Shown here: positions 16,008 to 64,000 of the stretch, piece after piece
Layout: each line of letters begins with the position of its first letter
How positions within the stretch are numbered: the stretch's first letter is position 1
Virus record (IMG/VR): IMGVR_UViG_3300021957_000004
Strand: one strand, 5' to 3'
DNA: 64,000 nucleotides
From: a virus
Made by a program: the position numbers and the translations under genes
Notes under the pieces: generated by a model
Database searches by the model: none
Seen by the model: only the letters and a program-made list of their open reading frames with translations
Told to the model about the DNA's origin: nothing

Positions 16008-16970
16008 ATGGCAGCACCAAACAGTAAAATAACATTAATTGATCATTGTTTAAGATCACTGGGTGCACCTGTAATCGAAATCAATGTAGATGACGATCAG
16101 GTTGATGATAGAGTAGACGAAGCTCTTCAGTTTTATCAAGCATATCATTCAGACGCAGTTGAAAAAGTTTACTTAAAACATGAAGTTAGTAATTCACAAT
16201 TAACATTAAGCGCATCAGTTGCTAGTAATTTCACAATAGGTGAGATAATTACTGGATCAACATCCGGTGCAAAAGCTTTAGTCCATTCTGTATCAGGTAA
16301 TAAAATTACATATAATGTATTAGTAGATTGGAGTAAGACATTTCAAAATGAATCAATTACAGGCGCGGACTCGAGTGCGAGCGCGACGGTTACTTCTGTT
16401 ACTAAAGGCGATATGGAAAATGGATATATTACAATACCAGAATTAGTTACGGATGTGTTAGAGGTATTTCCTATTAAAGAAGCGGTTTCATCTACTAATA
16501 TGTTTGACATTAAATACCAAATGCATTTAAATGATATCTATTCATTAGGATTTTTAGGTTCTTTAACCGAATATGTTATGACACAACAGTGGTTATCTTT
16601 ATTAGATATGGTAATAGATGATGGTAAGAAACATTTAAGCTTTGATAAACACAAAGATCAATTAAGGATCGATATGGATTGGGCAAAAGAAGTTATACCA
16701 GGTGAATATATTATCGTACATTGTAATAGAGTAATCGACCCAAATACTTACACAGAAGTTTATAATGATTACTTTCTAAAGAAATACGCAACGGCTCTTA
16801 TTAAAAGACAATGGGGAACAAACCTATTAAAATTTGAAGGAATGGTTATGCCAGGTGGCGTAACGTTTAACGGTCGACAATTGTTTGATGATGCAAACGA
16901 AGAAATAACAAAATTAGAGGAAGAGTGTAGATTAAATTGGGAAGAACCAGTAGATTTCTATACAGGATAA
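16008..16970 (+). CDS. gp13: Neck protein gp13 (with internal beta-rich insertion)
   Basis: LRSLGAPVIEINVDDDQ, YNDYFLKKYATALIKRQWG.NL.KF.G..MPGGV. Confidence 0.93.
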   Translation: MAAPNSKITLIDHCLRSLGAPVIEINVDDDQVDDRVDEALQFYQAYHSDAVEKVYLKHEVSNSQLTLSASVASNFTIGEIITGSTSGAKALVHSVSGNKITYNVLVDWSKTFQNESITGADSSASATVTSVTKGDMENGYITIPELVTDVLEVFPIKEAVSSTNMFDIKYQMHLNDIYSLGFLGSLTEYVMTQQWLSLLDMVIDDGKKHLSFDKHKDQLRIDMDWAKEVIPGEYIIVHCNRVIDPNTYTEVYNDYFLKKYATALIKRQWGTNLLKFEGMVMPGGVTFNGRQLFDDANEEITKLEEECRLNWEEPVDFYTG

Positions 16971-16973
16971 ACC

Positions 16974-17918
16974 ATGCCAAGATCAGTTTTCTTTTCACAG
17001 GCGGTTAAATCAGAACAAAATCTTTACGAAGATTTAGTTATTGAAAGCCTAAAAATATTCGGACAGGATGTATATTATATTCCTCGAACATTAGTGAATA
17101 GGGATAACGTATTAAATGAAGATCCAGCATCTAAATTTGACGATGCATATTTAATAGAAGCTTATTTAGAAAACGTAGATGGATTTGAAGGACAAGGGGA
17201 TTTATATTCTAAATTCGGTTTAGAAATACGAGACGAAGCAACATTTGTACTTTCTAGAAGACAGTGGGAAAAGATTGTTGGTATATTTTCAAGTGATTTA
17301 GTTAATCCAAGACCGCAAGAAGGTGATGTTATATTCCTTCCAATGACCAATTCATTCTTTGAAATATCTTATGTTGAAGATGATTCACCATTCTATCAGT
17401 TATCTAACTTACCAGTATATAGACTTAACTGTTCGCTATTTGAATATTCAGACGAAGATTTCGATACAGGTGTAGAAGACATAGATCTAAAAACTGGGGC
17501 ATCGGCTTACCAAACAGTTATGGATTTAGCTATTACCGATGGCAATCATTTCCAAATAGGAGAAATGGTTAAACAAACAATTGGTATTACTGCAGCAGGA
17601 TTAGATATAATTATTAAGGGTGAAGTACAGAATAGAACTAAATCTTCAGATACTATTTCACAGGTTGGGGTTTCAAACATAGAAGTTCTTAATAGCGATG
17701 GAGTTGCTAAAGAGTTTATAGTTTCTACTAATAACCCAATGGTTGGAGAAACATCAGACTTTACAGCTTATGTAACTAAGGTATACGGAATAAACGACGT
17801 AACTGAAACATTTGATACAGATGGCGGAGCACAAAATGTTGACTTCGAAAATTTTGCTGATGACTTTATTGACTTCAGTGAAACAAATCCATTTGGCGAT
17901 CCATCGGAGCTTTACTAA
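16974..17918 (+). CDS. gp14: Neck protein gp14
   Basis: EQNLYEDLVIESLKIFGQDVYYIPR, SKFGLEIRDE, PQEGD.I, DFSETNPFG. Confidence 0.93.
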   Translation: MPRSVFFSQAVKSEQNLYEDLVIESLKIFGQDVYYIPRTLVNRDNVLNEDPASKFDDAYLIEAYLENVDGFEGQGDLYSKFGLEIRDEATFVLSRRQWEKIVGIFSSDLVNPRPQEGDVIFLPMTNSFFEISYVEDDSPFYQLSNLPVYRLNCSLFEYSDEDFDTGVEDIDLKTGASAYQTVMDLAITDGNHFQIGEMVKQTIGITAAGLDIIIKGEVQNRTKSSDTISQVGVSNIEVLNSDGVAKEFIVSTNNPMVGETSDFTAYVTKVYGINDVTETFDTDGGAQNVDFENFADDFIDFSETNPFGDPSELY

Positions 17919-19199: not shown

Positions 19200-19610
19200 A
19201 TGGACAAAAAAGACAAGCTACAAAAGTCATTAGAGAAAAATCTTCCTAGTAAAAGACCTCCGGCAGCTAAACTGCAGGACAAAATAGATATTAAGGATGA
19301 TTATGAATTCTCTAGAAAAACCTATAAAGATTTAATCCAAACTGGAATGTATAGTTTGGATACGCTCGCCGAGCTCGCCCGCGAGAGCGAGCACCCACGT
19401 GCGTTCGAAGTATTAAGTAGAGCCATAAAAGACGTAGCAGATACTACAGAAAAGCTTATGGACTTACAAAAAAATAAAAAAGCTTTGAATAAAGAAGAAG
19501 AAGAAAAAGAAAAAGAGAGATTAGTTACTAATAATAATCTATTCGTAGGAAGCACAGCAGATTTACAAAAGATGATATTGGATAAAGATTTTATTGATGC
19601 AGAGGATTAA
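19200..19610 (+). CDS. gp16: Terminase small subunit gp16
   Basis: DDYEFSR, ESEHPRAFEV, NNLFVGSTADLQK. Confidence 0.92.
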   Translation: MDKKDKLQKSLEKNLPSKRPPAAKLQDKIDIKDDYEFSRKTYKDLIQTGMYSLDTLAELARESEHPRAFEVLSRAIKDVADTTEKLMDLQKNKKALNKEEEEKEKERLVTNNNLFVGSTADLQKMILDKDFIDAED

Positions 19611-21204
19611 AAATAACGAATTCGGGTATCTAGGTAATCCTAATGTAAAACGGGATGGTGTAGTCACAGAATTTAGTAAAGAAGAAATAAGGGAATACAT
19701 GAAGTGTATGAAAGACCCTGCTTATTTTGCTAAAAAATATGTTAAGATTATATCACTCGATGAAGGATTAGTACCTTTTGATTTGTATCCTTATCAAAAA
19801 AAGATGTTTAAACACTTCAATCAGAATAGATTTAGTATAGTGTTAGCATGTAGACAAAGTGGTAAAAGTATATCTAGTGTGGTTTATATCTTATGGTATG
19901 CAGTATTTCACCCAGAGAAAACCATAGCTATACTTGCAAACAAAGGTGCGGTAGCCAGAGAAATGTTATCTCGTATTACATTGGCTTTGGAAAACTTACC
20001 TTTCTTTTTACAGCCAGGAACAAAGGCTTTAAACAAAGGGTCTATAGAGTTCAGTAATAATTCTAAGATACTAGCAGCGGCAACGTCTGGAAGTTCTATA
20101 AGGGGTTTATCCATTAACTTATTGTTCTTAGATGAGTTCGCATTTATTGATGATGATGCTAAATTTTATACATCAACCTATCCGGTGGTATCGGCAGGTA
20201 AAGATACACAGATTATAATTTGTTCTACAGCAAATGGAATAGGTAATGTATATCATAAGCTTTGGGAAGGTGCTTCTCAAGGAACAAATGAATATAAGCC
20301 TTTCAGAATAGATTGGTGGGATGTACCAGGAAGAAATAAAACTTGGCAAAAACAAACTATAGCGAATACATCGGAATTACAGTTTGAACAAGAGTTTGGT
20401 AATACATTCCATGGAAGAGGTAATACACTTATTGATGCTAATTACTTATTAGCTCAACAAAGCGTTGAACCTGAATTTATAAAAGAGAATGCCTGGATAT
20501 ATGAAACTGCATTAGAAGGTCATGAATATATAATGACTGTGGATGTTGCAAAGGGAAGAGGACAAGATTACAGTACGTTTACTGTTATTGATGTTTCAAC
20601 CGAACCGTTTAGACAAGTAGCTACGTTTAGAGATAACAATATATCTCCAATGTTATTACCTGATATAGTTTATAAGTATGCTAAGTCGTATAATGATGCT
20701 TACGTGATTGTAGAAAGTAATGACCAGGGTTCAGTAGTTTGTAATGGATTATATTATGATTTAGAATATGAAAACATGTTTGTAGAATCGTCAGTAAAGG
20801 CAAATGCAATTGGTGCTACGATGACACGAAGGGTAAAAAGAATAGGTTGTTCTACTATAAAAGATTTAATAGAGCAAGGTAAACTACATATCCAGGATGC
20901 TAATACAATTATAGAGATGAGTACATTTGTTTCTGTTGGATCTTCTTTTATGGCTAAAGCACCTAACCATGATGATTTAATGATGAACCTAGTAATGTTT
21001 GCTTGGTTTACTTCAACAGATATATTTAGATCATTAACAGATATTGATATGAAAGATATGTTATACAGAGAAAGATTAGCTGCTATACAAGATGACATGC
21101 TTCCGGTTGGTTTCTTAGGTGAGAAATCTGAAGAGCATAAATATACTAAAGACTCAGACGGTAATCTCTGGTTCGAACAAGACACTAAATTTACGAATTG
21201 GTAA
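19597..21204 (+). CDS. gp17: Terminase large subunit gp17
   Basis: RQSGKS Walker A, LFLDEFAF Walker B, DVAKGRGQDYS nuclease motif, HDDLMM. Confidence 0.96.
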   Translation: MQRIKNNEFGYLGNPNVKRDGVVTEFSKEEIREYMKCMKDPAYFAKKYVKIISLDEGLVPFDLYPYQKKMFKHFNQNRFSIVLACRQSGKSISSVVYILWYAVFHPEKTIAILANKGAVAREMLSRITLALENLPFFLQPGTKALNKGSIEFSNNSKILAAATSGSSIRGLSINLLFLDEFAFIDDDAKFYTSTYPVVSAGKDTQIIICSTANGIGNVYHKLWEGASQGTNEYKPFRIDWWDVPGRNKTWQKQTIANTSELQFEQEFGNTFHGRGNTLIDANYLLAQQSVEPEFIKENAWIYETALEGHEYIMTVDVAKGRGQDYSTFTVIDVSTEPFRQVATFRDNNISPMLLPDIVYKYAKSYNDAYVIVESNDQGSVVCNGLYYDLEYENMFVESSVKANAIGATMTRRVKRIGCSTIKDLIEQGKLHIQDANTIIEMSTFVSVGSSFMAKAPNHDDLMMNLVMFAWFTSTDIFRSLTDIDMKDMLYRERLAAIQDDMLPVGFLGEKSEEHKYTKDSDGNLWFEQDTKFTNW

Positions 21205-21205
21205 T

Positions 21206-22657
21206 ATGAAATTTAAAGAATATATAGATCCTCAACCAATAGAGGAAGCAATAGATACCTCAGACCAGGCTTTAAAAAAGACCTCTGGTTTACATCTTGT
21301 TGTGCTCGGTCTAGGAGACGAAGAAGGTACATTTGCAGATGTAATACAAGAAGTAGCTAAAAACAAAAAAATAAAGTATACTCTAATTAACGTAGAAGAA
21401 GCTTATATAGCAGATGCGGATTTAGATGTTGGAAATCTTACGTTCCATAATTACGACGGCGAGGATAAAAAGATTACCCTTGAGAAAGAAAAGTGTATCG
21501 TATTTGTAAGAGCTGGGGCAATACAAACATTAGTTTCCCAGGCTTTAGTATCTACGCTAGGTGCTTATGGATTCTTTCTTATCAATGATTTAGAATCTAT
21601 GATTTTATGTGATAACAAACTATCAAGCACAATTCTTTTAGATAGGTATGATATTAGTACCCCAAAAACTGCTATGATTAGTAACGTTAAATCTATAGAA
21701 ATAGCACACGAAAAGATCGGCGGTAAATTCCCAGTTATAATTAAAACCCTTACAGGTACACAAGGTGTGGGGGTTTCTAAAGTAAACGATATGGCTTCGT
21801 TAATATCTGTAGCACAATCTCTATGGAAATATGATGCACAGATATTAATACAACAATTCCTAGATATAAAATCAGATATACGTACATTAGTTGTGAATGG
21901 TCATATCATAGGCGCAGCACAAAGAATAAAGCAAGATGATAAAGAATTTAGAAACAATGTACATTTAGGTGCTAAAACTGTACCATATAATCTATCGGAA
22001 GAAGAAAAAGAATTGATTAAGCGTGCAGCACGTGCGTCTGGTACTATGTATTGTGGAGTAGATCACTGCAAAGTTGGAGATCAGTATTACATACTAGAAA
22101 TAAATGGATCACCTGGAATACGTTCTTCGTTCATGGCTTATGATCCAGCAGATGGAAAAAAGATAGGCAAAATGTCCGACAAAGAAGTATTCGAAGTTAT
22201 ATTAGATTACTATTCTTCTGAACTACACCGAAGACCTTTATTTAGAACCGAAGCTGGTTATATAGAAAGAGTTATAGTAGAAGGATTAAATGCACCAGTA
22301 AGAGCTAAGTTTGATACAGGTAATGGCACAAATGCCACAATGTTACATGTAGATAAATTAGAAATAGATGGTGATACAGCTCATTGGGTTAAAAACGGAC
22401 AGAAATTTAAAAATGAAATAATAGATGTATCACTAGCAAAGCATTTACAAACCACAGATAAAAGGCCTGTGGTAGAACTAACAATATCCTTTAATAATAA
22501 ACAATACACGGTTCCTTTCGGATTAACTACAAGAGATTCTGCTTCAGAAATGCTTGTAAATAGGAAGCTATTAAGTATATTTAAGGTATCAGTTAATCCA
22601 AATAGGAAGTTTATTTTATCGGATTGGGTTCCAAAGAACGATCGCAGCGATGTGTAG
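21206..22657 (+). CDS. RimK-like ATP-grasp ligase fused to a C-terminal retropepsin-like (RimK-associated) protease domain
   Basis: PVIIKTLTGTQGVGV, IQQFL, DIRTLVV, FRNNVHLGA, LEINGSPG; C-terminal AKFDTGN...RP.V..MLVNR; start taken at the ATG just after the gp17 stop. Confidence 0.85.
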   Translation: MKFKEYIDPQPIEEAIDTSDQALKKTSGLHLVVLGLGDEEGTFADVIQEVAKNKKIKYTLINVEEAYIADADLDVGNLTFHNYDGEDKKITLEKEKCIVFVRAGAIQTLVSQALVSTLGAYGFFLINDLESMILCDNKLSSTILLDRYDISTPKTAMISNVKSIEIAHEKIGGKFPVIIKTLTGTQGVGVSKVNDMASLISVAQSLWKYDAQILIQQFLDIKSDIRTLVVNGHIIGAAQRIKQDDKEFRNNVHLGAKTVPYNLSEEEKELIKRAARASGTMYCGVDHCKVGDQYYILEINGSPGIRSSFMAYDPADGKKIGKMSDKEVFEVILDYYSSELHRRPLFRTEAGYIERVIVEGLNAPVRAKFDTGNGTNATMLHVDKLEIDGDTAHWVKNGQKFKNEIIDVSLAKHLQTTDKRPVVELTISFNNKQYTVPFGLTTRDSASEMLVNRKLLSIFKVSVNPNRKFILSDWVPKNDRSDV

Positions 22658-22746: not shown

Positions 22747-24438
22747 ATGGCATTTCAAGTATCACCAGGCGTTGAGGTCAAAGAGATCGACGCAACTAGC
22801 GTGATTCCCGCTGTTTCTACCAACATTGGTGGATTCGCAGGGTCATTTAACTGGGGTCCGGTTGAAGAAATTAAAACAGTAGGTTCTGAATCAGAACTCG
22901 CTGAACATTTTGGAACACCAGATGACAGTACAGCTAAATATTTTCTTACAGCCGCGGCATTCTTAAAGTATGGCAACGCGCTGAAGGTTGTTAGGGTATT
23001 ATCAGGGCATGACAATGCTACTGGTGATGGTTCCGGACAACTGATTAAGAATAAAGATGATTATGATAATAACTACGCTAACGGATCCCTTTCAAAGGGT
23101 GATTGGGTTGCTAAATATCCAGGCGTTCTAGGAAACAGTCTGAAAGTATCAGTAATATCGCAAGGTATTTCTAGCTTTTCAGGTTGGACATATGCAGGGT
23201 CATTTGACTCAGCACCAGGAACATCGGATTATGCAATTTCAATTGGTAAATCGGGCGCAAACGACGAATTACACGTAGCAGTTATTGATGAAGATGGTTT
23301 ATTAACAGGTACCGCAGGTACTGTGTTAGAAACTTTCGCATACGTTTCCCAAGGTTCAGATGCTAAGAAGAGTGATGGAACTACTAACTATTACAAAGAG
23401 GTTATTAATAATAACTCTAAGTATATTTGGTGGACAGATCACAACACTAACTTAGCTGAAGCAGGCTCACTTATTTCAAGTGTAGCAGGAAACAGTTTTA
23501 CAACACACACAGGCGCAATGGAAGCTTCATTGGCCGGTGGATCAGATGATAACGCACCAACAGCAGGCGAAATTCTATTAGGTTACGACCTATTCGAAGA
23601 CGCTGAAACAGTTGATGTTAACTTATTGTTTGCATGTCCAGATGCTAACGGAGCAGAGACAATAGCAGAAGATCTTATTTCAATTGCAACAGCAAGAAAA
23701 GATTGTATGGCTTTTGTATCTCCACCGATAGAGGACACAGTAGGAAGTTCAGCTCCAGCAACAGACGTAATGGCTTTTGCAAACGGACTAACTTCTTCAT
23801 CATACGCATCTTGCGATAGTTCAGCTCTATACGTATACGACAAATATAACGACGTATATAGATGGATCGGGGCAGCAGGACACGTAGCAGGTTTATGTGC
23901 TAATACAGATCAAGTAGCAGATGCTTGGTTCTCACCAGCTGGTGTTAACCGTGGTCAGTTATTTGGCGTAACTAAACTAGCATACAATCCTAAAAAAGCA
24001 GATAGAGATACATTGTACAAAGGAAGAGTAAACCCAATCGTTTCCTTCCCAGGACAAGGTATGATGTTATTTGGAGATAAAACTCTTCTTAGCAAACCTT
24101 CTGCATTCGATAGGATTAACGTTCGAAGATTGTTCATAGCATTAGAGAAAGCAATTTCTACAGCAGCTAAGGCACAATTATTTGAATTTAACGACGAGTT
24201 CACAAGAGCTAACTTCCGTAATATGGTAGAGCCGTTCTTGAGAGACGTCAAAGGTAGACGTGGGGTTACAGACTTTTCAGTAATATGTGACACTACGAAT
24301 AACACCGGAGCGGTTATTGATGGTAACAGATTCGTGGCAGATATTTTTATCAAGCCAGCAAGATCTATTAACTTCATTACACTAAACTTCATAGCAACAA
24401 GAACAGGCGTCGATTTCTCAGAAATCGCCGGCTCATAA
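22747..24438 (+). CDS. gp18: Tail sheath protein gp18
   Basis: SPGVEVKEID, WFSPAG.NRG, FDRINVRRLF, IKPARSINFITLNF. Confidence 0.96.
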   Translation: MAFQVSPGVEVKEIDATSVIPAVSTNIGGFAGSFNWGPVEEIKTVGSESELAEHFGTPDDSTAKYFLTAAAFLKYGNALKVVRVLSGHDNATGDGSGQLIKNKDDYDNNYANGSLSKGDWVAKYPGVLGNSLKVSVISQGISSFSGWTYAGSFDSAPGTSDYAISIGKSGANDELHVAVIDEDGLLTGTAGTVLETFAYVSQGSDAKKSDGTTNYYKEVINNNSKYIWWTDHNTNLAEAGSLISSVAGNSFTTHTGAMEASLAGGSDDNAPTAGEILLGYDLFEDAETVDVNLLFACPDANGAETIAEDLISIATARKDCMAFVSPPIEDTVGSSAPATDVMAFANGLTSSSYASCDSSALYVYDKYNDVYRWIGAAGHVAGLCANTDQVADAWFSPAGVNRGQLFGVTKLAYNPKKADRDTLYKGRVNPIVSFPGQGMMLFGDKTLLSKPSAFDRINVRRLFIALEKAISTAAKAQLFEFNDEFTRANFRNMVEPFLRDVKGRRGVTDFSVICDTTNNTGAVIDGNRFVADIFIKPARSINFITLNFIATRTGVDFSEIAGS

Positions 24439-24451
24439 GGGAGAATAAATC

Positions 24452-24982
24452 ATGGCAATATTAGGCGTAGACGATTTTAAATCGAAACTAGTAGGCGGTG
24501 GTGCTCGTTCTAACCTATTTAAGGTTACAATGAACTTCCCTGGCTATGCAAATGGTGATGTAGAACTTACATCATTTATGTGTAAAACAGCTCAATTCCC
24601 GTCATCAATAGTAGGACCAGTTATGGTACCATTCAGAGGAAGACAACTTCAGTTAGCTGGAGATAGAACTTTTGAACCTTGGACTATAACAATTATTAAT
24701 GATACTGGTTTTGAAGTGCGAAATGCTTTCGAGCAATGGAGCAACGGTATTAACAGTCATAACGGAAATACTGGTTTAAGTAATCCTACTGATTATCAAG
24801 CAGATGCTATTATTGAGCAACTTGATAAAGAAGGTAATACTACTAAAACTTACGACTTTAGAGGGCTTTGGCCATCTAACATCGGAGCTATTGACGTTTC
24901 CTATGAAAGTGCAGACACAATTCAAGAGTTTACTGTTGAACTGCAAGTACAATATTGGGAATCAACTGGAACCACTACCTAA
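24452..24982 (+). CDS. gp19: Tail tube protein gp19
   Basis: GGARSNLF, FRGRQLQLAGDRTFEPWTIT. Confidence 0.95.
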   Translation: MAILGVDDFKSKLVGGGARSNLFKVTMNFPGYANGDVELTSFMCKTAQFPSSIVGPVMVPFRGRQLQLAGDRTFEPWTITIINDTGFEVRNAFEQWSNGINSHNGNTGLSNPTDYQADAIIEQLDKEGNTTKTYDFRGLWPSNIGAIDVSYESADTIQEFTVELQVQYWESTGTTT

Positions 24983-24990
24983 TTTAGGGT

Positions 24991-24998
24991 TATAAATA
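24991..24998 (+). promoter_or_regulatory. T4-type late promoter TATAAATA
   Basis: Exact consensus upstream of the portal gene. Confidence 0.8.
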
Positions 24999-25050
24999 TA
25001 TAAGACGAGAGGGATTAACCTCCCTCTCTAATTATATAGAGAGATATAGT

Positions 25051-26550
25051 ATGGCAGAATTTTTCGGATTCGAAATAAATAGAAAAGGAAAGGACAAAGA
25101 AGTTCCTAAAGTTTCCTTTGTACCAAATACAGATGAAGACGGCGCAGGTGTTATTACCAGTGGCGGACATTTTGGTGCATATTTAGATATTGATGGCGAC
25201 AAAGCTAAGAACGAAGTTGAGCTTATTATGAAGTATCGAGACGTAGCATCCCAACCAGAGGCTGATGCGGCTATTGAAGATATTATTAATGAATCAATTG
25301 TTGGAGATCATAACGAAGCTCCAGTAGATATCGTTTTGGATAAAGTTGATACATCAGATAAGATTAAGAAATTAATCAAAGGAGAGTTTGATAATATATT
25401 AGAAATGCTTAACTTTAATAGTTATGCTCATGATATATTCAAACGTTGGTATGTTGATGGTAGATTACCATACCACATTATAGTTGACGATAACCTTAAG
25501 CTTGGTATTAAAGAGCTTAGGTATATTGATCCAACTAAACTAAGAAAAGTAAAAGAGATTGAAGAAGAGGAAGATCCTAAAACAGGAGCTAAACTTATTA
25601 AATCTCAGAAAGAATTTTTTATTTTCCAAGATAATGCAATGGGAAAATATAATCAAGGACTTAAAATACAACCAGACGCTATAGCATATGCGACTTCTGG
25701 AATGTTAGATAGTTCTAGGAAAAGAATTTTATCCTATTTACATAAAGCTATTAAGCCGGTAAATCAATTAAGGATGATGGAAGATTCGTTGGTTATATAC
25801 AGAATATCACGTGCCCCAGAACGTAGGATATTTTATATTGATGTTGGTAACTTACCTAAGGGTAAAGCTGAAGAATACCTAAAAGGTATTATGAATCAAT
25901 ATAGAAACAAATTGGTATATGATGCAAAGACTGGTGATATTAAAGACGATAAAAAGCATATGAGTATGCTTGAAGATTTCTTCTTACCACGTAGAGAAGG
26001 TGGAAGAGGAACAGAAATCACCACGCTACCAGGCGGCGAGAATTTAGGTCAAATAGATGATATAGTATATTTCCAAAAGAAATTATATAAATCACTTAAC
26101 GTACCTATGAATCGATTAGAACAAGAAGCTCAATTCTCATTAGGTAGATCTTCCGAGATCACCAGAGATGAGGTTAAGTTTAAGAAGTTTATCGATCGAC
26201 TAAGAAAAAGATTTTCAGACCTTTTTATGCAGTTGTTAAAAACACAATTGTTATTAAAGGGAATTATAACCAAAGATGATTGGGCGGAATGGAAAGAATC
26301 TATAGCGTTTGATTATATAGAGGATAACTACTTCAGTGAATTAAAAGAAGCTGAAATGTACCAACAAAGGTTTGAAATGTTAAGTTCACTAGATGAGTTT
26401 ATGGGTACGTTTATATCTAAAGAGTGGGTTCAGAAGAATATTCTACGCTTTAACGATGATGATATAGAAACTATGCAGAAACAAATCGATGACGAAGAGA
26501 AAGGTGGCGAACTAGATATGCCAGATCCGGATGATCCGAGATTTGGTTAA
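25051..26550 (+). CDS. gp20: Portal protein gp20
   Basis: YLHKAIKPVNQLRMMEDSLVIYRISRAPERRIFYIDVGNLPK. Confidence 0.97.
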   Translation: MAEFFGFEINRKGKDKEVPKVSFVPNTDEDGAGVITSGGHFGAYLDIDGDKAKNEVELIMKYRDVASQPEADAAIEDIINESIVGDHNEAPVDIVLDKVDTSDKIKKLIKGEFDNILEMLNFNSYAHDIFKRWYVDGRLPYHIIVDDNLKLGIKELRYIDPTKLRKVKEIEEEEDPKTGAKLIKSQKEFFIFQDNAMGKYNQGLKIQPDAIAYATSGMLDSSRKRILSYLHKAIKPVNQLRMMEDSLVIYRISRAPERRIFYIDVGNLPKGKAEEYLKGIMNQYRNKLVYDAKTGDIKDDKKHMSMLEDFFLPRREGGRGTEITTLPGGENLGQIDDIVYFQKKLYKSLNVPMNRLEQEAQFSLGRSSEITRDEVKFKKFIDRLRKRFSDLFMQLLKTQLLLKGIITKDDWAEWKESIAFDYIEDNYFSELKEAEMYQQRFEMLSSLDEFMGTFISKEWVQKNILRFNDDDIETMQKQIDDEEKGGELDMPDPDDPRFG

Positions 26551-26568
26551 GTTTAAGACTTTTAAATG

Positions 26569-26576
26569 TATAAATA
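26569..26576 (+). promoter_or_regulatory. T4-type late promoter TATAAATA
   Basis: Exact consensus upstream of the prohead genes. Confidence 0.8.
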
Positions 26577-26594
26577 AATAACACAGGATAAATA

Positions 26595-26765
26595 ATGGAA
26601 ATCGCAGATATTATAAACAAAGTGGGAACAGGCGACAATGTAAATGCTAATAAAGCATTTGATACTGTTATGGCAACAAAGCTAAAAGATGCTTTGGATG
26701 CCAAAAAAATAGAGCTTGCTACTAGTATGGTTGATCGTAAGATCGAACCAGTCGAGCAAGACTAA
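26595..26765 (+). CDS. gp67: Prohead core protein, gp67-like (56 aa, not in ORF track)
   Basis: MEIADIINKV..GDNVNANKAFDTVMATKLKDALDAKKIELA; syntenic between gp20 and gp21. Confidence 0.75.
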   Translation: MEIADIINKVGTGDNVNANKAFDTVMATKLKDALDAKKIELATSMVDRKIEPVEQD

Positions 26766-26780
26766 TTACGGAGAAACTCA

Positions 26781-27437
26781 ATGAAATTAATTTCAGAGTA
26801 TTTAGATAGTAATATAACAAATTACATTACCGAAGATAAAAAAGGTAATAAAAGCCACGTCATAGAAGGCGTGTTTATGCAGGCCGATACGAAAAATCGA
26901 AATGGCCGTGTATATGAAAAAAAGATTCTAGAGTCAGCTGTTAACAAATATGTTAAAGAGCAGGTGACAACTGGTAGGGCTGTTGGTGAGTTAAATCATC
27001 CAGAAGGACCTACTATTAACCTAGATAAAGTTTCACATAAGATTACCGAACTCAAATGGGACGGAAGTAATGTTATTGGAAAGGCATCAATATTGAAAAC
27101 ACCTATGGGTCAGATCGTCGAAGGTCTACTTGAAGGTGGAGTTAAGCTTGGTGTATCAAGTCGTGGTATGGGAAGCCTTGTGCAAAAGAATGGTGCTAGT
27201 TACGTGAATGGTGACTTTATGTTATCAACAGTAGATATCGTTCAAGACCCTTCCGCTCCGGAGGCATTTGTCAACGGAATTATGGAAGGTAAAGAATGGG
27301 TATGGGATAACGGTATATTAGTAGCGCAAGACATTGAATTAATTGAGACTGAAATAAAGACAGCAAAGAATATCAACTCTTCGGATGTTGAGATCAGAGC
27401 CTTTAAGAATTTCCTCTCGAAACTTGTAAATAAATAA
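26781..27437 (+). CDS. gp21: Prohead protease gp21
   Basis: IEGVFMQA..KNRNGRVY, GELNHP, GVSSRGMGS, DIVQDPSAP. Confidence 0.96.
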   Translation: MKLISEYLDSNITNYITEDKKGNKSHVIEGVFMQADTKNRNGRVYEKKILESAVNKYVKEQVTTGRAVGELNHPEGPTINLDKVSHKITELKWDGSNVIGKASILKTPMGQIVEGLLEGGVKLGVSSRGMGSLVQKNGASYVNGDFMLSTVDIVQDPSAPEAFVNGIMEGKEWVWDNGILVAQDIELIETEIKTAKNINSSDVEIRAFKNFLSKLVNK

Positions 27438-27455
27438 TCCGAGGAGGATAACGAC

Positions 27456-28580
27456 ATGTCAGAAGACGTAAAAAACGCCGAAGACGTATCAATTGACGAG
27501 CAAGCTTCTAGCGAAGAGCAACTTAACGATGAAAATCAAGTAATCGAAGATGTTGTTGAGAGCGAGGAAGCTGTTGAAGAAACTGCAGAAGTAGAATTAG
27601 AAGAAGCTAAAGCTAAAAAAGAGGATGATCTTGAAGAAGATGCTCCTAAGGCTATAGCAACTCCTAAAACTAAAGCTGGTGTTATTCAAGCAGCCGTTGA
27701 TATGCTTAAAGGTGTCAAAAAAGAAGACGCACAAAAACTATTTGCGAAAATGGCAGCGATCTCTGATGACAAAGATCTAGACGAAGAAGAAGAAACTGGT
27801 TCACCAGTAGCTTCTAAAAAGAATGAATTAAAAGCTAAAGCGAAAGTAGAAGCTCTTGATTTTGACGAAGATCTAGACACAATCATCAAAGAGGAAGCTA
27901 CGCTTTCAGATGGATTCCGTGAAAAAGCAAGCGCTATTGTAGAGGCAGTACTAACAAGTAAATTAGCCGAATCAGTAGAGCGTTTAGAAGCAGAATACGT
28001 GCAAAACCTAGAAGAAGAGGTTTCTGAAATTCAAAATTCATTAGTAGAGAAAGTAGATTCATACTTAAACTACGTAGTGGAAAATTGGATGAAAGAAAAC
28101 GAAGTTGCAGTAAGTACAGGTCTTAGGACTGAAATTGCTGAAGACTTTATGACTTCTTTACAATCAGTGTTCAAAGAACATTATATTGAAATTCCAGAAG
28201 GCAAAGAAAACTTGTTAGATGAACTATCTGACCAAGTAGCTGAGCTAGAGGAATCTCTAAACAAAACCACAGAAGATAACATCAAACTACACGAAGCTAA
28301 TCAGTCACATGAGAAAGTTTCTATAGTAAGAGAAGCATCTTCAGGGCTTGCGGAAACAGATGCTGAGAAATTTGCTAAGTTAGTGGAAGATGTAGAGTTT
28401 GATAACAAAGAAACTTTCGAACAGAAAGTTGCTACTATCAAGCAATCATTTTTCAAAGGCGAAGTAACTGAATCAGTTGATGAAGTAAACAGCATGGCAG
28501 GCGAAGACTCAGCGGAAGTTGAGCCAGTAAGCGAAGCTATGTCTAGATACACTCAGGCTATAACAAAATTTAATAAATAA
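27456..28580 (+). CDS. gp22: Prohead scaffold gp22
   Basis: Acidic coiled coil; KVDSYLNYVVENWMKEN; position before gp23. Confidence 0.92.
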   Translation: MSEDVKNAEDVSIDEQASSEEQLNDENQVIEDVVESEEAVEETAEVELEEAKAKKEDDLEEDAPKAIATPKTKAGVIQAAVDMLKGVKKEDAQKLFAKMAAISDDKDLDEEEETGSPVASKKNELKAKAKVEALDFDEDLDTIIKEEATLSDGFREKASAIVEAVLTSKLAESVERLEAEYVQNLEEEVSEIQNSLVEKVDSYLNYVVENWMKENEVAVSTGLRTEIAEDFMTSLQSVFKEHYIEIPEGKENLLDELSDQVAELEESLNKTTEDNIKLHEANQSHEKVSIVREASSGLAETDAEKFAKLVEDVEFDNKETFEQKVATIKQSFFKGEVTESVDEVNSMAGEDSAEVEPVSEAMSRYTQAITKFNK

Positions 28581-28600
28581 TCTTAAGGGGAAAAACAAAA

Positions 28601-50524: not shown

Positions 50525-50600
50525 GGGGCGGTAGCTCAGTAGGGAGAGCGCCTGGTTTGCAACCAGGAGGTCGTGGGTTCGATCCCCTCTCGCTCCACCA
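50525..50600 (+). tRNA. tRNA-Ala (UGC)
   Basis: 76-nt cloverleaf; anticodon arm CCTGG-TTTGCAA-CCAGG; G3:U70 Ala identity pair; TTCGA T-loop; encoded CCA. Confidence 0.95.
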
Positions 50601-50614
50601 TTTAGGAGAATAAT

Positions 50615-50908: not shown

Positions 50909-50914
50909 AAGGGG

Positions 50915-50943
50915 TTTACAAATACCTGAAACTATGGTATAAT
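50915..50943 (+). promoter_or_regulatory. Early promoter
   Basis: ggggTTTACA-17-tggTATAAT. Confidence 0.85.
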
Positions 50944-50954
50944 ACATCTATATT

Positions 50955-52356: not shown

Positions 52357-52359
52357 GGG

Positions 52360-52388
52360 TTTACTTTTAACTAAAACTATGGTATAAT
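52360..52388 (+). promoter_or_regulatory. Early promoter, 7 nt before ATG 52396
   Basis: ggggTTTACT-17-tggTATAAT. Confidence 0.85.
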
Positions 52389-52395
52389 ATACATT

Positions 52396-52743
52396 ATGAA
52401 ACCACTACACATACTTAAACAAGCCGCTGATCTTATAGCTAAGAAAGGCAATGACTACCAAAATCCTAAATCTAGGATTAGACAATCAGACTACTATCCA
52501 AATGGCGCACAAACCATTTTAGATATTATGACTGGCAAAGTTAATCGTATGCATTCTGTTTTGGATGCTATGAAAGACGATGAAAACTATATGGAAAACT
52601 TCGAATCACTACAAGATTCTGCAATAGATTTAATTAACTATTCTGCCTTCTTCTCATCATATTTAGATTATGATATTGACGGCCAAACCCCAGACAAAGA
52701 CATATTTAACAGGAACATAATCAGAGATGACAATAGCAAGTAA
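52396..52743 (+). CDS. Nucleotide-modification-associated all-alpha protein (DUF1599/Nmad1-like)
   Basis: KKGNDY, K..R, DSAIDLINYSAF. Confidence 0.65.
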   Translation: MKPLHILKQAADLIAKKGNDYQNPKSRIRQSDYYPNGAQTILDIMTGKVNRMHSVLDAMKDDENYMENFESLQDSAIDLINYSAFFSSYLDYDIDGQTPDKDIFNRNIIRDDNSK

Positions 52744-53458
52744 TTTAAAACTAGGATTACACGACTTAAGAAGTAATTTATTAAATCTTGGTTATGAAAT
52801 AGAAACCGAAAGATGGCAAGGTGGAACAGAACATCCTGCCTTCCTAGAAATATTACATGCAAGTATGAAAGCAAATATGTACGATAATGCAGAAGAAGCT
52901 AGTACAGAATTAAAAGCTACCCAACCATGGGCAGATATTCATTTCGACGAAAGAGTAGGTGGTATACCTTGCAATCCACCGCCATCACATACAATGTGGT
53001 TAAAAGACACAGATAAATATTTAATGGATACGGCTTTTTCACATAGCTATCCAGAAAGAATGTGGCAAGATACAGAACAAATGGGAGTTAGATTTAATAT
53101 AGCAGATCTAAACACAGCAGTTAAACTATTACAAAAAGAACCTAAAACAAGGCAATGTTATATACCAATCTGGTTTCCAGAAGATGGTACAGCCGCTCTC
53201 GCGGGCGAACGCGTCCCGTGCACGTTCGGGTGGCATTTTATGTTACGTGATGGTAAATTACATTGTGCATATCATATGCGATCATGCGATGTAATGCGAC
53301 ACTTACATAACGATTTATATTTCGCTAATAGGTTATGCTTATGGTTAATAGAACAATCAGGCTTAGATGCAGTACCAGGAATCATGCATTTCTCTGCTAG
53401 CTCTTTACATTGCTTTACAGTAGATAAATATGGACTTAACAATTTGGTAAATGAATAA
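52727..53458 (+). CDS. Thymidylate-synthase homologue, dCMP-type (hydroxymethylase-like)
   Basis: RVPCT catalytic Cys; MRSCDVMRHLHND with Asp at the E. coli ThyA Asn177 position; SLH. Confidence 0.8.
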   Translation: MTIASNLKLGLHDLRSNLLNLGYEIETERWQGGTEHPAFLEILHASMKANMYDNAEEASTELKATQPWADIHFDERVGGIPCNPPPSHTMWLKDTDKYLMDTAFSHSYPERMWQDTEQMGVRFNIADLNTAVKLLQKEPKTRQCYIPIWFPEDGTAALAGERVPCTFGWHFMLRDGKLHCAYHMRSCDVMRHLHNDLYFANRLCLWLIEQSGLDAVPGIMHFSASSLHCFTVDKYGLNNLVNE

Positions 53459-54774
53459 TGTGCGGATTTTTAATAAGCAATAGAACACAAACAACAGCTA
53501 ATGGAATGCAATCTCTTAAAGAGATGGAATACCGTGGGCTAAGAACTAAGTATCGTGGATATAAAACATGGAAAGATTATGATATGTTCCATACTGCTTT
53601 ACCTATGATCGATGCAGATCCAGCTATAGCAATCCAACCTATTCAATACGATGACGAACCACCTTCACTTTTTGTTGGTGAAATATTTAATTATAAAGAC
53701 TTTGGTGAATATGCAAGCGATGCTCATATGATACATCAAAGATATAGAGAAGAACTTTCACATGAATTCTTTCATAAGTTCGATGGCTTCTGGAGTTATG
53801 TTACATTTTTTAATGAACATCCAATTGCTTATACAGATTTCCTAGGTATTAAACCAATCTATTATCGTAAAGATGTAGAAGTTATGGCATCAGAACCTGA
53901 TGTACTAAAAGCCTATGGCCCAGTCACACCGGATGAAATATTCCATTCTAATGTTATGAAATGGGGTTATGATCCCCAAGGCGGAACACCATGGAATGAA
54001 ATACATCAACTAAAGCCTGGACACTTTTTATATAAAGGTCGAGAATATCCTTATTGGGATTGGGCTTCAGTTCCGGTGACCAATTTGTACGATGACCTAG
54101 CCTTAGCGGTTAAATTAAGATTAGGTGGATTCAGAGAAGCAGCCGTTCTACTGTCAGGTGGGTTAGACTCCACTATCGTATACCAACTTATTAAACAGCA
54201 AGGACTAAACGTTACAGCTATTCATGTTGATAACCACGAAGAAAAATATGCTAAGATGGTAGAAGCCGATTTAGTAAAAGTTACTTTAGAAGAGGTTAGC
54301 GATCAGGATGCTATTAGAATACACCAAAGCCCTGTAGATCTTGGATCAGTTAAACCACAAATTGCTATGGCAAGAAAGCTAAAAGAAGAAGGTTACCATA
54401 TGGTATTAACCGGCGATGGCGCAGATGAACTATTTGGTGGCTATAGAAGAGCAGAAGAATATGATTCTCAAATGTCAGATGTGTTCTGTGAATTACCTTT
54501 TTACCATTTGCCTAAGCTAGATAGAACTATGATGAGATCAACTGTAGAGCTACGTGCTCCATTCTTATCGCCAGCAGTTATAGTTCATGCATTATCTATT
54601 CCATACGAAGATAGAAACGGCGAAAAGAAAGTATTAAAAGAAACATTTAAAGATATTGTTCCACCTAAAATACTAAATCGTAAAAAAGAACCATTAAAGA
54701 CAGATGCTATACGTGAAGATAAAATGAAGCAAAGACAAATTAATAATAAAATATGGAGAGAGCTTTATGAGTGA
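53458..54774 (+). CDS. Asparagine synthetase B-like glutamine amidotransferase
   Basis: N-terminal MCG, GEIFNY, D.LGIKPIYY, LLSGGLDS, TGDGADELFGGY, ELRAPFL. Confidence 0.9.
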   Translation: MCGFLISNRTQTTANGMQSLKEMEYRGLRTKYRGYKTWKDYDMFHTALPMIDADPAIAIQPIQYDDEPPSLFVGEIFNYKDFGEYASDAHMIHQRYREELSHEFFHKFDGFWSYVTFFNEHPIAYTDFLGIKPIYYRKDVEVMASEPDVLKAYGPVTPDEIFHSNVMKWGYDPQGGTPWNEIHQLKPGHFLYKGREYPYWDWASVPVTNLYDDLALAVKLRLGGFREAAVLLSGGLDSTIVYQLIKQQGLNVTAIHVDNHEEKYAKMVEADLVKVTLEEVSDQDAIRIHQSPVDLGSVKPQIAMARKLKEEGYHMVLTGDGADELFGGYRRAEEYDSQMSDVFCELPFYHLPKLDRTMMRSTVELRAPFLSPAVIVHALSIPYEDRNGEKKVLKETFKDIVPPKILNRKKEPLKTDAIREDKMKQRQINNKIWRELYE

Positions 54775-55213
54775 TAAATGGGATAAAAGATACTTAGCTT
54801 TAGCTGAGCAGGTCGCTGGTTGGAGTAAAGATCCAAGTACGCAGGTTGGCGCAGTTGCTGTAAACGATCAAGGTAATGTTGTTGCTCAAGGATATAATGG
54901 ATTTCCAAGAGGCATAGAAGACACCGAATTAAGATATAATGACAGAGAGCTTAAATATAAATATGTGGTACATGCAGAAACAAACTGTATATACAATGCG
55001 GCATTTAATGGTAATTCATTAGATGGATGTACAATGTATGTTTGGCCATTACCAGTATGCCATGAATGTGCAAAAGCCATTATACAATCAGGAGTTTGCA
55101 GAGTTGTGTCCCCACAATTTACTAATTCCGAAACCGAGCTAAGATGGAAAGATTCATGCTCACAAACCCTGGATATGTTTGAAGAAGCTTATATCCAATA
55201 TGATTTCATTTAG
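54767..55213 (+). CDS. dCMP deaminase
   Basis: SKDPSTQVGA, GYNGFPRG, HAETN, PVCHECAK. Confidence 0.93.
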   Translation: MSDKWDKRYLALAEQVAGWSKDPSTQVGAVAVNDQGNVVAQGYNGFPRGIEDTELRYNDRELKYKYVVHAETNCIYNAAFNGNSLDGCTMYVWPLPVCHECAKAIIQSGVCRVVSPQFTNSETELRWKDSCSQTLDMFEEAYIQYDFI

Positions 55214-58463: not shown

Positions 58464-59087
58464 ATGTTTAAGAAATTATTAATGCCATTATTTGTGGCAA
58501 CTTGTTTCTCACCTTTCACGTTTGCTGATGTTTCAGGTAAAGTTGGAGTAATGTCTGACTATATGTGGAGAGGGCAAACACAATCCATGGGAGATACTTC
58601 CTACAATCTAGGCATAGATTATAATCACGACAACGGATTATACGGAAGCGCTTGGATGGGACAGGTCGACTTTGGAGACGAAGCTGAATGGGAATATGAT
58701 TTAGCAGTAGGATATAATCTTACCGTTACTGATAATCTTTCACTCGGTGGTGGAGTTATACAATACTCTTATAATGAAGGCTATGATGATATTGAAGAGC
58801 TTTTTGTTAACGCAAGTTACAAGAACTCAAGTATATATTACTATGTAGATAGCGACAACTCAGATAATACATATATGGAATTTACGCAACATCTTGCGTT
58901 TCTTTCAGATGTACCTGGGGATTTCTATGTTAAATATGGCGACTTTAACAATGGGGATGATTGGGCAGCGCTCAAGTATTCCAACATGGTAGCTCCGAAT
59001 GTACAATTAAGTTTGCACATTATGGATGGAGTTAGACATGGAGATGCCACAGATAGCATGGTACTAGCTATGCATTACCTTTTCTAA
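58464..59087 (+). CDS. Outer-membrane beta-barrel protein (TIGR02001/Gcw_chp, TorF-like porin)
   Basis: Signal peptide ending TFA-D, SDYMWRGQTQ, GLYGSAW...VDF, EYDL..GY, terminal Y-x-F. Confidence 0.8.
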   Translation: MFKKLLMPLFVATCFSPFTFADVSGKVGVMSDYMWRGQTQSMGDTSYNLGIDYNHDNGLYGSAWMGQVDFGDEAEWEYDLAVGYNLTVTDNLSLGGGVIQYSYNEGYDDIEELFVNASYKNSSIYYYVDSDNSDNTYMEFTQHLAFLSDVPGDFYVKYGDFNNGDDWAALKYSNMVAPNVQLSLHIMDGVRHGDATDSMVLAMHYLF

Positions 59088-61894: not shown

Positions 61895-63133
61895 ATGATA
61901 TCATTTAAAAACCATAACCTTACAGAAGCCAAAAACACTCACATGACTCATATAGAGGATTTAGTGTTGGATGGCGGAGTTAAGGGAGCCCGCCAAGCTA
62001 TCAACGCTCTACGCAGTATGAGAGATATGTTGAGTGGTCACGCAAAATCACCTGTAGACGTGACCGTAAAATGGGACGGGGCTCCCGCCGTATTCGCAGG
62101 TGAAGATCCAAGAGATGGATCGTTCTTCGTAGCTAAAAAAGGAATCTTTAATGCAGATCCTAAAGTATATAAAAGCCACGAAGATATAAAGGCTGATACC
62201 TCAGGTGATCTATCCAAAAAGCTTATTATGGCTTTTGATGGATTAAAGGACTTAGGTATCAAGGGTGTAATACAAGGTGACTTTATGTTTGATAAATCGG
62301 ACCTTAAAGGTGAAACGATTAACGGACAAAAGATGATTACCTTTCACCCAAACACTATTGTTTATGCAGTACCATATGGATCTAAATTAGAGAAAGATAT
62401 ATCTAAAGCAGATGTTGGTATTGTATGGCATACATCTTATAAAGGTGGAACATTCGAAACTATGCAAGCTTCTTTTGGCGGTGACATAGTTGGTAAATTA
62501 AAAAAGAGTTCTAAGGTATGGCAGGTAAATGCAGACCTAGAAGAGCTATCAGGTAAAGCTACATTTACCGCAGCAGACAATATGAAAGTAACTAAATTGT
62601 TATCTGAAGCTGGTAAACTATTCCAAAAGATATCTTCTGGGGTATTAAAAGAATTAGAAAACAATAAAGAATTAAATTTAGTTATTAATGTTTATAATAA
62701 TAGTATGGTGAGAAAAGGCCAAAGAATTAAAGACGAGAAGAAACACGCTAAGGGATTAATCCAGTTTGTTACTGATCGATACGCTAAACAAATCGATAAG
62801 CGTAGTTCACAGAAAGGAAAAGATATACAAATAGGTAAAAGAGATGAATTATTATCGTTTTTCTCTACTAGTAACTTAAAAAACTTAGAAAATGTCTTTA
62901 AATTACAGAATTATCTTGTAGACAGTAAATTAATTATTATAAATAAACTTAACAAACTAAATAAAATCGGAACGTTTGTTAAAACAACATCCGGATTTAA
63001 AGTAACCAACCCAGAAGGTTTTGTTGCTATAGATCGTATGGAAGGTGGAGCAGTTAAGCTTGTTGATAGATTGGAATTTTCTGCCAACAACTTTAGCAAA
63101 GATATTATAAAAGGTTGGGATAATCCTAACTAA
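61895..63133 (+). CDS. Conserved T4-like protein with ligase/nucleotidyltransferase-type motifs
   Basis: TVKWDGAP (KxDG), QGDFMF, EGFVA, VKLVDR. Confidence 0.6.
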   Translation: MISFKNHNLTEAKNTHMTHIEDLVLDGGVKGARQAINALRSMRDMLSGHAKSPVDVTVKWDGAPAVFAGEDPRDGSFFVAKKGIFNADPKVYKSHEDIKADTSGDLSKKLIMAFDGLKDLGIKGVIQGDFMFDKSDLKGETINGQKMITFHPNTIVYAVPYGSKLEKDISKADVGIVWHTSYKGGTFETMQASFGGDIVGKLKKSSKVWQVNADLEELSGKATFTAADNMKVTKLLSEAGKLFQKISSGVLKELENNKELNLVINVYNNSMVRKGQRIKDEKKHAKGLIQFVTDRYAKQIDKRSSQKGKDIQIGKRDELLSFFSTSNLKNLENVFKLQNYLVDSKLIIINKLNKLNKIGTFVKTTSGFKVTNPEGFVAIDRMEGGAVKLVDRLEFSANNFSKDIIKGWDNPN

Positions 63134-63151
63134 AATGGGAATTCAAAGGAT

Positions 63152-64000
63152 ATGCAAATTAAATCATTTAGTGATTACTTAGTCGAAGACACAAAAGAAG
63201 TCACATTCGTGTTCGGGCGTTTTAATCCGCCTACTATTGGTCATGAGAAACTATTTGACCAAACAAAAAAACTAGCCAGATCTGGCACATATCGTATATA
63301 CGCATCTAAATCTGTAGATGCTAAAAAGAATCCATTACAATTTAAAGACAAAGTTAAGTTTTTACGTAAGATGTTTCCTAAACATGCTCGCCAAGTTATG
63401 GCTGATAAGGATGTAAGAAACGTTTTAGATATTGCTACCAAATTATACGATCAAGGATTTACAAAAGCAAGTATGGTAGCAGGTTCAGATAGAGTAAAAG
63501 AGTTTGAAGTATTACTTAACAAATATAATGGTGTTAAGTCTAGACATGGTTTTTATGAATTCCAAGGTCTGATTAAAGTTTTAAGCGCAGGCGAGCGCGA
63601 CCCGGACGCAGAAGGTATATCAGGTATGTCAGCATCTAAAATGCGACAAGCAGCAGTAGATGGTAACCTACCATTATTTGCAAAAGGATTACCAGCAAGA
63701 TTTTATCCAACAGATTTATATAATGCTGTTAGAGCAGGTATGGGTTTAAAATCAGAAGGATTTAGACCACACGTTGAATTAGAAACTGTATCAGATATCA
63801 GAGAAGATTACGTGGAAGGAAAAATATTTAGAATTGGTACTATGATTCGTATGAAAGAATCAGGTGAAGTAGGTAAAGTGGTTATAAGAGGAACTAATTA
63901 TATTCTTGCAGAATTCAACGGAAGAAAAAGACGTTGTTGGCTAGATTCAATTCAAGAAGAAGGCGGTGCTGGAGATCATGGCACAGGCAAGCTTACCAAG
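63152..64000 (+). CDS. HIGH-family cytidylyltransferase-like protein (runs off window; not in ORF track)
   Basis: MQIKSFSDYLVEDTKEVTFVFGRFNPPTIGHEKL, KNPL, VAGSDRV, AGERDPDA, MSASKMR. Confidence 0.85.
   Translation, partial: MQIKSFSDYLVEDTKEVTFVFGRFNPPTIGHEKLFDQTKKLARSGTYRIYASKSVDAKKNPLQFKDKVKFLRKMFPKHARQVMADKDVRNVLDIATKLYDQGFTKASMVAGSDRVKEFEVLLNKYNGVKSRHGFYEFQGLIKVLSAGERDPDAEGISGMSASKMRQAAVDGNLPLFAKGLPARFYPTDLYNAVRAGMGLKSEGFRPHVELETVSDIREDYVEGKIFRIGTMIRMKESGEVGKVVIRGTNYILAEFNGRKRRCWLDSIQEEGGAGDHGTGKLTK

Follow-up and report, generated by a model that had tools for sequence, protein, structure and literature searches.

CpG-dense patches of synonymous codons in a marine T4-like phage, and their possible role as recognition sites for a DNA-handling protein

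Why should a phage whose codons mostly end in A or T switch, for a few dozen nucleotides at a time and inside unrelated genes, to codons that end in G or C and are rich in CpG? This question is raised by a 64-kb piece of a marine T4-like myovirus (IMG/VR record IMGVR_UViG_3300021957_000004; hereafter the window, by which we mean the whole stretch of 64,000 nucleotides (nt) analysed), which has a G+C content of 35.9% and a third-codon-position G+C content of 0.24. An earlier reading of the window, made from its letters without database searches, had listed eight strong islands of this kind and a weaker ninth, had noted a CGCGA(G/C) motif in all of the strong ones, and had proposed that they form an orientation-independent DNA-level signal overprinted on coding sequence. 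Here, we consider whether these islands are real, how they are distributed among relatives, and what might read them. Islands are named after the gene in which they lie (Table 1).

All nine of the sequences described in that reading are present at the positions given for them. A scan that was blind to the list, using 24-nt windows with a G+C fraction of at least 0.66 and at least five CpG, recovered the eight strong islands and no others, each of them 25–46 nt long; the site at 22021–22038, which had been described as weak, has just 3 CpG. In 200 within-gene synonymous codon shuffles the mean number of islands was 0.5 and the maximum 3, far below the eight observed, and a definition based on third-position G+C only gave 6 islands compared with 1.8 in shuffles. 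Island G+C content is 0.67–0.81, with 5–10 CpG per island and very sharp edges, and third-position G+C content inside islands is 0.73–0.92, as opposed to the genome-wide value of 0.24. Every island lies in frame within an open reading frame (ORF) on the plus strand, the strand that carries nearly all long ORFs of the window, and its codons are replaced one for one, the peptide being kept in relatives. Furthermore, independent metagenome assemblies of 2015–2024 carry the four islands from 35323 to 53230, and contigs from three studies (X4 (2015), X5, X7 (2024)) that span those at 41135, 48285 and 53192 have none of their listed differences within an island. For the islands so covered, this excludes the assembly artefact that the sequence-only reading had raised as a possibility. 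A contig from an RNA library also spans the island at 41135, in which case DNA carry-over is possible.

Comparison with relatives provides the history of these islands. A homologue of the small terminase gp16 is encoded by 80 IMG/VR loci, among which a clade of 26 (Shimodaira–Hasegawa-like approximate likelihood-ratio test (SH-aLRT) support 99) uses the G/C version for the peptide LAELARESEHPRAF and a second clade has intermediate island spellings. In more distant relatives this peptide is written in codons that end in A or T, with AGA for Arg and TCN for Ser. It follows that the gp16 island is a derived trait, one that is inherited and graded. Its length reaches 66 nt in some relatives, and it has the widest distribution of all islands: a 14-mer scan recovered it also in the more divergent IMG/VR gp16 genes L284, L367 and L393, which have other upstream peptides (e.g. 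DMIQVARESEHPRAFE) together with the same core spelling, GCCCGCGAGAGCGAGCACCC, between A+T-rich flanks. The gene for the thymidylate-synthase-like (TS-like) enzyme has the same lineage pattern, with a half-island in L116 and independent, differing G/C spellings at the same site in two other lineages (L149 and L165). Synonymous conservation in the TS island was no higher than at other peaks of the TS-like gene, and the flank identities of the L116 half-island were uninformative on recombination. The UvsW island is kept, with variant spellings, among homologues at 80–100% protein identity and is absent from L188 and L193 (78–80%); the gp47 island is present or absent among relatives at 88–98% identity; and the DUF3310 and gp43 islands come and go among close relatives, G001 and G002 being without the DUF3310 island. 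Two sub-threshold sites of the window also have stronger counterparts, since relatives such as L061 have a full island at the site orthologous to 22021–22038, and L110 has a 49-nt island at the one orthologous to 62069–62100. Overall, G/C codons are kept in the orthologues of relatives, with variant spellings, and contigs carry between 0 and 2.4 islands per 10 kb. At several positions the peptide itself has changed so as to add CpG, with Gly or Leu replaced by Ala-GCG in gp43 and Gln by Ala-GCG in the TS-like gene.

As a separate observation, the TS-like gene is 98–99% identical to the window (52700–53400) in L108–L112, and its flanking genes are only 74–91% identical, a pattern indicating that a stretch of about 0.6 kb was exchanged recently and that this phage group is mosaic on a fine scale.

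We compared the islands with synonymous codons of equal G+C content. Against this null, CpG is in excess (57 versus 45.9 expected), as is GpC (40 versus 32.7), and CC/GG is depleted (36 versus 54.5); the nearest-neighbour duplex is more stable and purine/pyrimidine alternation is higher (P = 3e-4 each). Moreover, the choice between C and G depends on the base that follows: GGN, GTN, CTN and CGN codons end in C in 45 of 63 cases where G follows, compared with 12 of 44 where it does not (P = 1e-5). The comparison is in part circular, because the island catalogue was selected by CpG count; a non-circular form, in which islands were defined by third-position G+C, went in the same direction (odds ratio 2.4, P = 0.048). 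The same words also appear in different frames and on the opposite strand, as in the pair of peptides ARES and ALAG, spelled by one word read forward and in reverse; CACGTGCGT is present in both gp16 and gp43. The nine sites fold no better into hairpins or cruciforms than dinucleotide shuffles (z −0.73 to +0.76). Together with the amino-acid changes towards CpG, these results agree with the earlier proposal of an orientation-independent signal at the nucleic-acid level, and they speak against simple G+C enrichment and against codon rarity as the nature of that signal. A search for RNA families with Rfam found only a transfer RNA in the window, a single tRNA-Ala(TGC) at 50525–50600, and the distances from islands to the late-promoter sequence TATAAATA are without pattern.

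Three simple sources of such a signal were rejected. A genome-wide pressure for CpG fails, as CpG outside islands equals the codon-shuffle expectation; CGCG outside islands is marginally low (12 versus 19 expected, P = 0.055). Opportunity alone fails as well, since about 8 are used of the 172 CpG-capable stretches (those in which at least 8 CpG per 10 codons are possible). Finally, an origin from bacterial DNA or spacers was not borne out: the pattern of the gp16 island is unmatched in 185,579 species genomes.

The shared CGCGA(G/C) noted in the sequence-only reading occurs on one strand or the other in all eight strong islands, so that this part of the claim stands, but CGCG density captures the common feature better than a specific long word does. 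CGCG is found in every island of the window and in 21 of 22 island groups, and 11 of the 23 CGCG of the window fall within the islands, which make up 0.4% of its sequence, figures to be read in the knowledge that a definition by CpG count favours CGCG. A motif search returned a CGCG core, TCGCGTGC / GCACGCGA, with a log-likelihood 5–6 standard deviations above peptide-preserving and codon-order nulls. The longer repeats were also located as described: the 15-mer and its reverse complement recur, and CCCGCGAGAGCG has exactly three occurrences in the window (19378 and 33028 on the plus strand, 53194 on the minus strand). An 11-mer, GCGAGCGCGAC, is common to the gp13 and cytidylyltransferase islands, in which it is read in different frames. 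Sharing of 8–12-mers between islands is moderately greater than under peptide-preserving codon resampling (P 0.012–0.036) and is also greater than under codon-order shuffling (P < 0.001). Nevertheless, a specific 12–15-mer motif is not upheld, as much of the repetition results from peptides common to several islands (A/T-R-E-S forward, A-L-A-G in reverse) being written with a narrow codon set, and orthologues vary at several of the positions concerned.

The placement of the islands is selective. The gp18–gp23 block (sheath, tube, portal, protease, scaffold and capsid; window 22747–30499) is island-free in 9 contigs, including the window, G001, G002, G011, G012 and G014, and yet it has many CpG-capable, highly conserved peptides; this fits a DNA-level benefit that is traded against translational cost. 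The gp13 island, for its part, sits in a stretch of the protein that is variable among relatives. Spacing differs between contigs: in G013 (IMGVR_UViG_3300009550_000529) nine islands lie about 5 kb apart through the replication module (coefficient of variation (CV) 0.38, P = 0.006 versus random); the window has no such regularity (P = 0.11), and the islands of G011 are clustered. These comparisons establish the patches as real, inherited and derived features that act at the DNA level, are CpG-directed and are selectively placed, and they point to selection, or a directed process, on double-stranded DNA.

Table 1 CpG-dense islands and sub-threshold sites of the window, with the genes that contain them.
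Site	Position	Gene	Features
gp13 island	16362–16389	neck gene, gp13-like, ORF 16008–16970	encodes GADSSASAT; 7 CpG; two CGCG
gp16 island	19362–19407	small terminase (gp16-like), 19200–19610	encodes TLAELARESEHPRAF; largest; 10 CpG; CTCGC twice, GCGAG twice
Sub-threshold site	22021–22038	ATP-grasp gene, 21119–22657	3 CpG; CACGTGCGT
UvsW island	33003–33040	UvsW helicase, 31854–33347	encodes VSGETDVDTRES; 7 CpG
gp47 island	35323–35349	gp47 (Mre11-like), 34651–35712	encodes ETREITPVR
DUF3310 island	41135–41177	DUF3310 gene, 40954–41241	8 CpG; two CGCG
gp43 island	48285–48308	DNA polymerase gp43, 45960–48575	encodes HVRAALAY; alternating purine/pyrimidine run of 12 nt
TS island	53192–53230	cytosine-type thymidylate-synthase-like gene, 52727–53458	catalytic-Cys motif AALAGERVPCTFG
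Sub-threshold GC patch	62069–62100	DUF6267 gene, 61895–63133	4 CpG
Cytidylyltransferase island	63585–63610	cytidylyltransferase-like gene, 63152–end	encodes SAGERDPDA

The reading that we favour, with a probability of about 0.35, is that the islands are patches at which a DNA-handling protein specific to this phage lineage recognises the DNA or is loaded onto it. Under this reading, the lineage would have exchanged A/T-ending codons, and a few amino acids, in such a way that C and G alternate and CpG and CGCG are packed up to the limit set by the peptide, and a reader protein would recognise CGCG-dense and probably C5-modified DNA rather than one strict word. Patch length is in keeping with a protein footprint, and the gp16 patch marks a monophyletic clade with graded intermediates, both of which we count in its favour. 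We infer that selection, rather than biased repair, maintains the patches, that a protein reads them, and which protein this would be. The leading candidate for that role would be the small terminase, because the oldest, longest and most widely shared patch lies in its own gene, the usual place of packaging (pac) sites; the other patches, which share words with the gp16 patch, might then serve as secondary sites for packaging initiation or synapsis. The gp16-like ORF lies immediately upstream of a gp17-like ORF, and its match to PF11053 (terminase DNA packaging enzyme; E = 1.4e-4, 22.2 bits) is just below the cut-off of 25. The preferred gp16 site of T4 is within gene 16; a synapsis between two pac DNAs has been proposed, and related short sequences elsewhere are thought to pair with the gene 16 site (PMC3012670).

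Several observations weigh against recognition by a protein. The CGCG-core motif holds only about 9 bits, so there is no strict consensus beyond CGCG, and the most enriched 5-mer, GCGAG/CTCGC (18 versus 6.7 expected), is found in only 10 of 22 island groups. Orthologous islands differ at several positions, and the UvsW orthologues vary in spelling and therefore do not conserve the exact 12-mer. Eight or more sites per 64 kb is far above any known pac system, and the turnover of the gp47, DUF3310 and gp43 islands between close relatives would be odd for essential sites. A comparison of gene content between contigs identified no reader protein, correlations of gene content with islands are confounded by phylogeny and linkage, and the runs that carry the phage are assembled contigs, in which no molecule ends are visible.

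In a more specific proposal, which we regard as possible though not probable, the islands would be a new form of punctuation in a phage genome: CGCG-dense patches would yield clusters of modified cytosine on both strands, and these would act as self-marks read by a lineage-specific protein (the small terminase, or a loader for recombination or replication) that starts packaging or strand exchange at many points along an A+T-rich genome. A translational cost would limit where such marks can be placed, which would account for the lack of islands in the highly expressed head and tail genes. At 51445–55213 the window carries a cluster of ORFs for an N6/N4 DNA-methylase-like protein, a divergent TS-family enzyme, an asparagine-synthase-like amidotransferase and a deoxycytidine monophosphate (dCMP) deaminase, with a MazG-like ORF at 49223; such a set of nucleotide- and DNA-modification genes suggests non-canonical cytosine in the DNA. 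The TS-like enzyme has Asp where thymidylate synthases have Asn, as in its cytosine-specific relatives. In addition, a 298-amino-acid ORF between uvsY and uvsW (30958–31854) matches PF05159 (capsule polysaccharide synthesis, GT-B-type) at 24 bits against a cut-off of 20, has a weak TarL match in a profile search of PDB sequences and gives a structure model with a mean predicted local distance difference test (pLDDT) score of 50; this glycosyltransferase-like (GT-like) protein may be a DNA-sugar transferase. Its gene is found in every contig that has the UvsW island and is absent from the island-poor G003, G004, G005, G008, L188 and L193, and island-rich contigs that span the relevant regions encode both the TS-like enzyme and the GT-B-like transferase. 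Genes near the TS locus for methyltransferase-like, uracil-DNA-glycosylase-like and TS-like proteins occur both with and without islands, and the density of islands is not cleanly followed by any of the genes compared. At best, the GT-like and TS-like genes are necessary for islands, in a pattern confounded by phylogeny and linkage, and the link between islands and modified cytosine is circumstantial.

Biased gene conversion offers a neutral route to the same pattern, one that we consider unlikely though worth serious thought. Heteroduplex formed between co-infecting relatives at conserved motifs, where local homology is best, would undergo GC- or CpG-biased mismatch repair, from A/T to G/C, until saturation. 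This would account for a trait that is lineage-specific, directional and graded, for the position of most islands on conserved motifs, for amino-acid changes that go the same way and for half-islands such as that of L116, and it would draw on a mosaicism that is pervasive in the group, as at the TS-like gene. However, a generic GC bias does not predict that the choice of C or G depends on the neighbouring base, and CpG is not raised outside the islands. The most conserved and presumably most recombined genes (those for the major capsid protein, portal and sheath) have none, and the gp13 island lies in a variable stretch. In a crude test over 171 pairs, recombination boundaries peaked at gene borders, the bins holding the UvsW and gp47 islands receiving 10 and 3 of 121 against a mean of 4 per bin.

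It is also conceivable, if doubtful, that the islands need no dedicated reader and work as purely physical elements, in the form of stable, hairpin-free and mostly unique duplex tags that nucleate annealing for recombination-dependent replication, pose barriers to melting or branch migration, or provide Z-DNA-prone steps. Duplex energy and purine/pyrimidine alternation beyond the composition-matched nulls, the CC/GG deficit, self-folding no better than shuffles (z −0.7 to +0.8), alternating runs of up to 12 nt and the fairly even spacing in G013 are all as such an element would have them. Yet the excess of GpC and of stability may simply follow from C being chosen before G, the alternating runs are mostly 5–9 nt, which is short for Z-DNA, the even spacing of one contig stands against a lack of regular spacing in the window and clustering in G011, and words common to several islands would promote ectopic annealing.

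The location of islands on catalytic or conserved motifs in the genes that are typical homing targets (TS, DNA polymerase, UvsW, gp47 and terminase) raises a further alternative, in which heavy synonymous change immunises these motifs against homing endonucleases, intron or intein homing enzymes, or the nucleases of competing phages. Island length is that of a homing site, the gp47 alleles are all-or-none among close relatives, and the TS site has been spelled independently in L149 and L165. Even so, we judge this explanation improbable. Any change would suffice for escape, and yet the changes go almost only to G/C and CpG; the gp13 island is off any conserved motif; and a density of up to 2.4 islands per 10 kb would call for dozens of nucleases. 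Pfam and PHROG scans of about 35 window ORFs (island genes, their neighbours and window-unique ORFs, with the tail, head and several replication ORFs outside the scan and relatives not covered exhaustively) gave no HNH or GIY-YIG match, and no ORF is inserted in the syntenic core block that contains the islands at 16–41 kb or, more widely, in the syntenic block at 16–50 kb. Self-encoded guides directed against the A/T alleles were rejected too: neither the window nor six island-rich contigs, each a partial genome, contain a guide-like second copy of the A/T versions.

Translation provides a fourth alternative. With a third-position G+C content of 0.73–0.92 against 0.24, island codons are rare, and clusters of rare codons might slow ribosomes to assist co-translational folding or regulation. 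Positions recur among homologues with different spellings, island length is about that of one ribosome footprint, and the most highly expressed late genes are island-free. We nonetheless find this very improbable: which codon is used is tied to the base that comes next, the rarest codons (GGG, CCC and CGG) are avoided, as the CC/GG count reflects, identical words turn up in other reading frames and on the other strand, amino acids have been altered to add CpG, and close relatives manage without islands. The weakest alternative, that the islands reflect chance, amino-acid composition or assembly artefact, is refuted by the codon shuffles, by relatives that spell the same peptides with A/T codons and by the independent assemblies, even if composition does drive some G+C-rich stretches, such as the glycine repeats at 1847–2481. 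These form a CpG-poor run of GGTGGCGG-type glycine-rich repeats within the ORF at 1344–2507; they are G+C-rich because of their amino-acid content and are therefore distinct from the islands.

Turning to the phage itself, the window matches isolates at the nucleotide level only over short stretches, in cyanomyophage structural genes. Its major capsid protein is closest to those of Methylophilales phage Melnitz (65%) and Pelagibacter phage HTVC008M (62%), followed by cyanophages (about 60%), and these similarities place the phage near the pelagimyophage group. The window also encodes a protein of the Gcw_chp (curli-associated) family at 58464–59087, matching the curli operon that has been reported for pelagimyophages (PMC7029224). 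Within the coding sequence of the window, GGCC is rarer than in synonymous codon shuffles (35 versus 48.5, P = 0.01), which may reflect avoidance of a HaeIII-type site, and none of CCGG, GCGC, ACGT and TCGA is under-represented in the same comparison. At least 88% of sampled words from one 10-kb stretch were found in 14 DNA runs from 12 studies dated 2015–2025.

The main pelagimyophage paper makes no mention of CpG or GC-rich patches (PMC7029224), and full-text literature searches found no description of this island pattern. If a protein does read the patches, widespread uncultured marine T4-like phages, of which this one is present in the metagenomes of many separate studies, would use dispersed, density-coded marks in synonymous sites. 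Such marks would add a new level to the way these genomes are organised and would give access to packaging or recombination in phages that cannot yet be cultured. Should biased repair have produced the patches instead, they would preserve a natural record, of unusual clarity, of CpG-directed gene conversion in a virus. In both cases the synonymous sites of the island genes are non-neutral, which affects dating, recombination analysis and the design of primers and probes on the markers gp43, gp16 and UvsW.

It is useful, finally, to set the islands beside systems that are already understood. The pac sites of phages P22 (in gene 3) and SPP1 (in gene 1) lie in small-terminase genes, and the window likewise carries a candidate DNA signal inside small-terminase coding sequence, its gp16 island sharing 12–15-mers with the UvsW and TS-like islands. 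Unlike pac sites, of which there are one or two, islands number eight or more per 64 kb (rising to 2.4 per 10 kb in relatives), have no strict consensus and turn over between close relatives. In bacterial chromosomes, matS, SlmA and Noc sites, FtsK-orienting polar sequences (KOPS) and Chi are defined consensus words of 8–14 bp with known readers, some of them strand-oriented. The islands resemble them as short DNA-level signals that recur every few kb inside coding sequence, but only CGCG is shared by nearly all of them, and each patch is 25–46 bp of raised CpG density.

Among T-even phages, intronless homing is associated with cut-resistant target alleles, and the sites of SegF, SegG, MobE and I-TevI lie on catalytic codons. 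Such alleles are similar to the islands in being short recoded stretches on conserved motifs of essential genes that are polymorphic among close relatives; island change differs in being directional towards CpG, with no endonuclease gene nearby in the scanned ORFs. Position-conserved rare-codon clusters, reportedly described by Chaney and colleagues in 2017, likewise consist of rare synonymous codons in a row, at positions that recur between homologues, whereas island spelling is set by neighbouring bases and the other strand, not by rarity. The GC clusters of yeast mitochondria and the palindromic elements of Rickettsia are G+C-rich or palindromic mobile inserts in A+T-rich genomes, with hairpin potential and in some cases in frame. 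They share with the islands the appearance of sharp G+C-rich patches in A+T-rich DNA, sometimes within genes; the islands, by contrast, replace codons instead of being inserted, and have no excess of folding.

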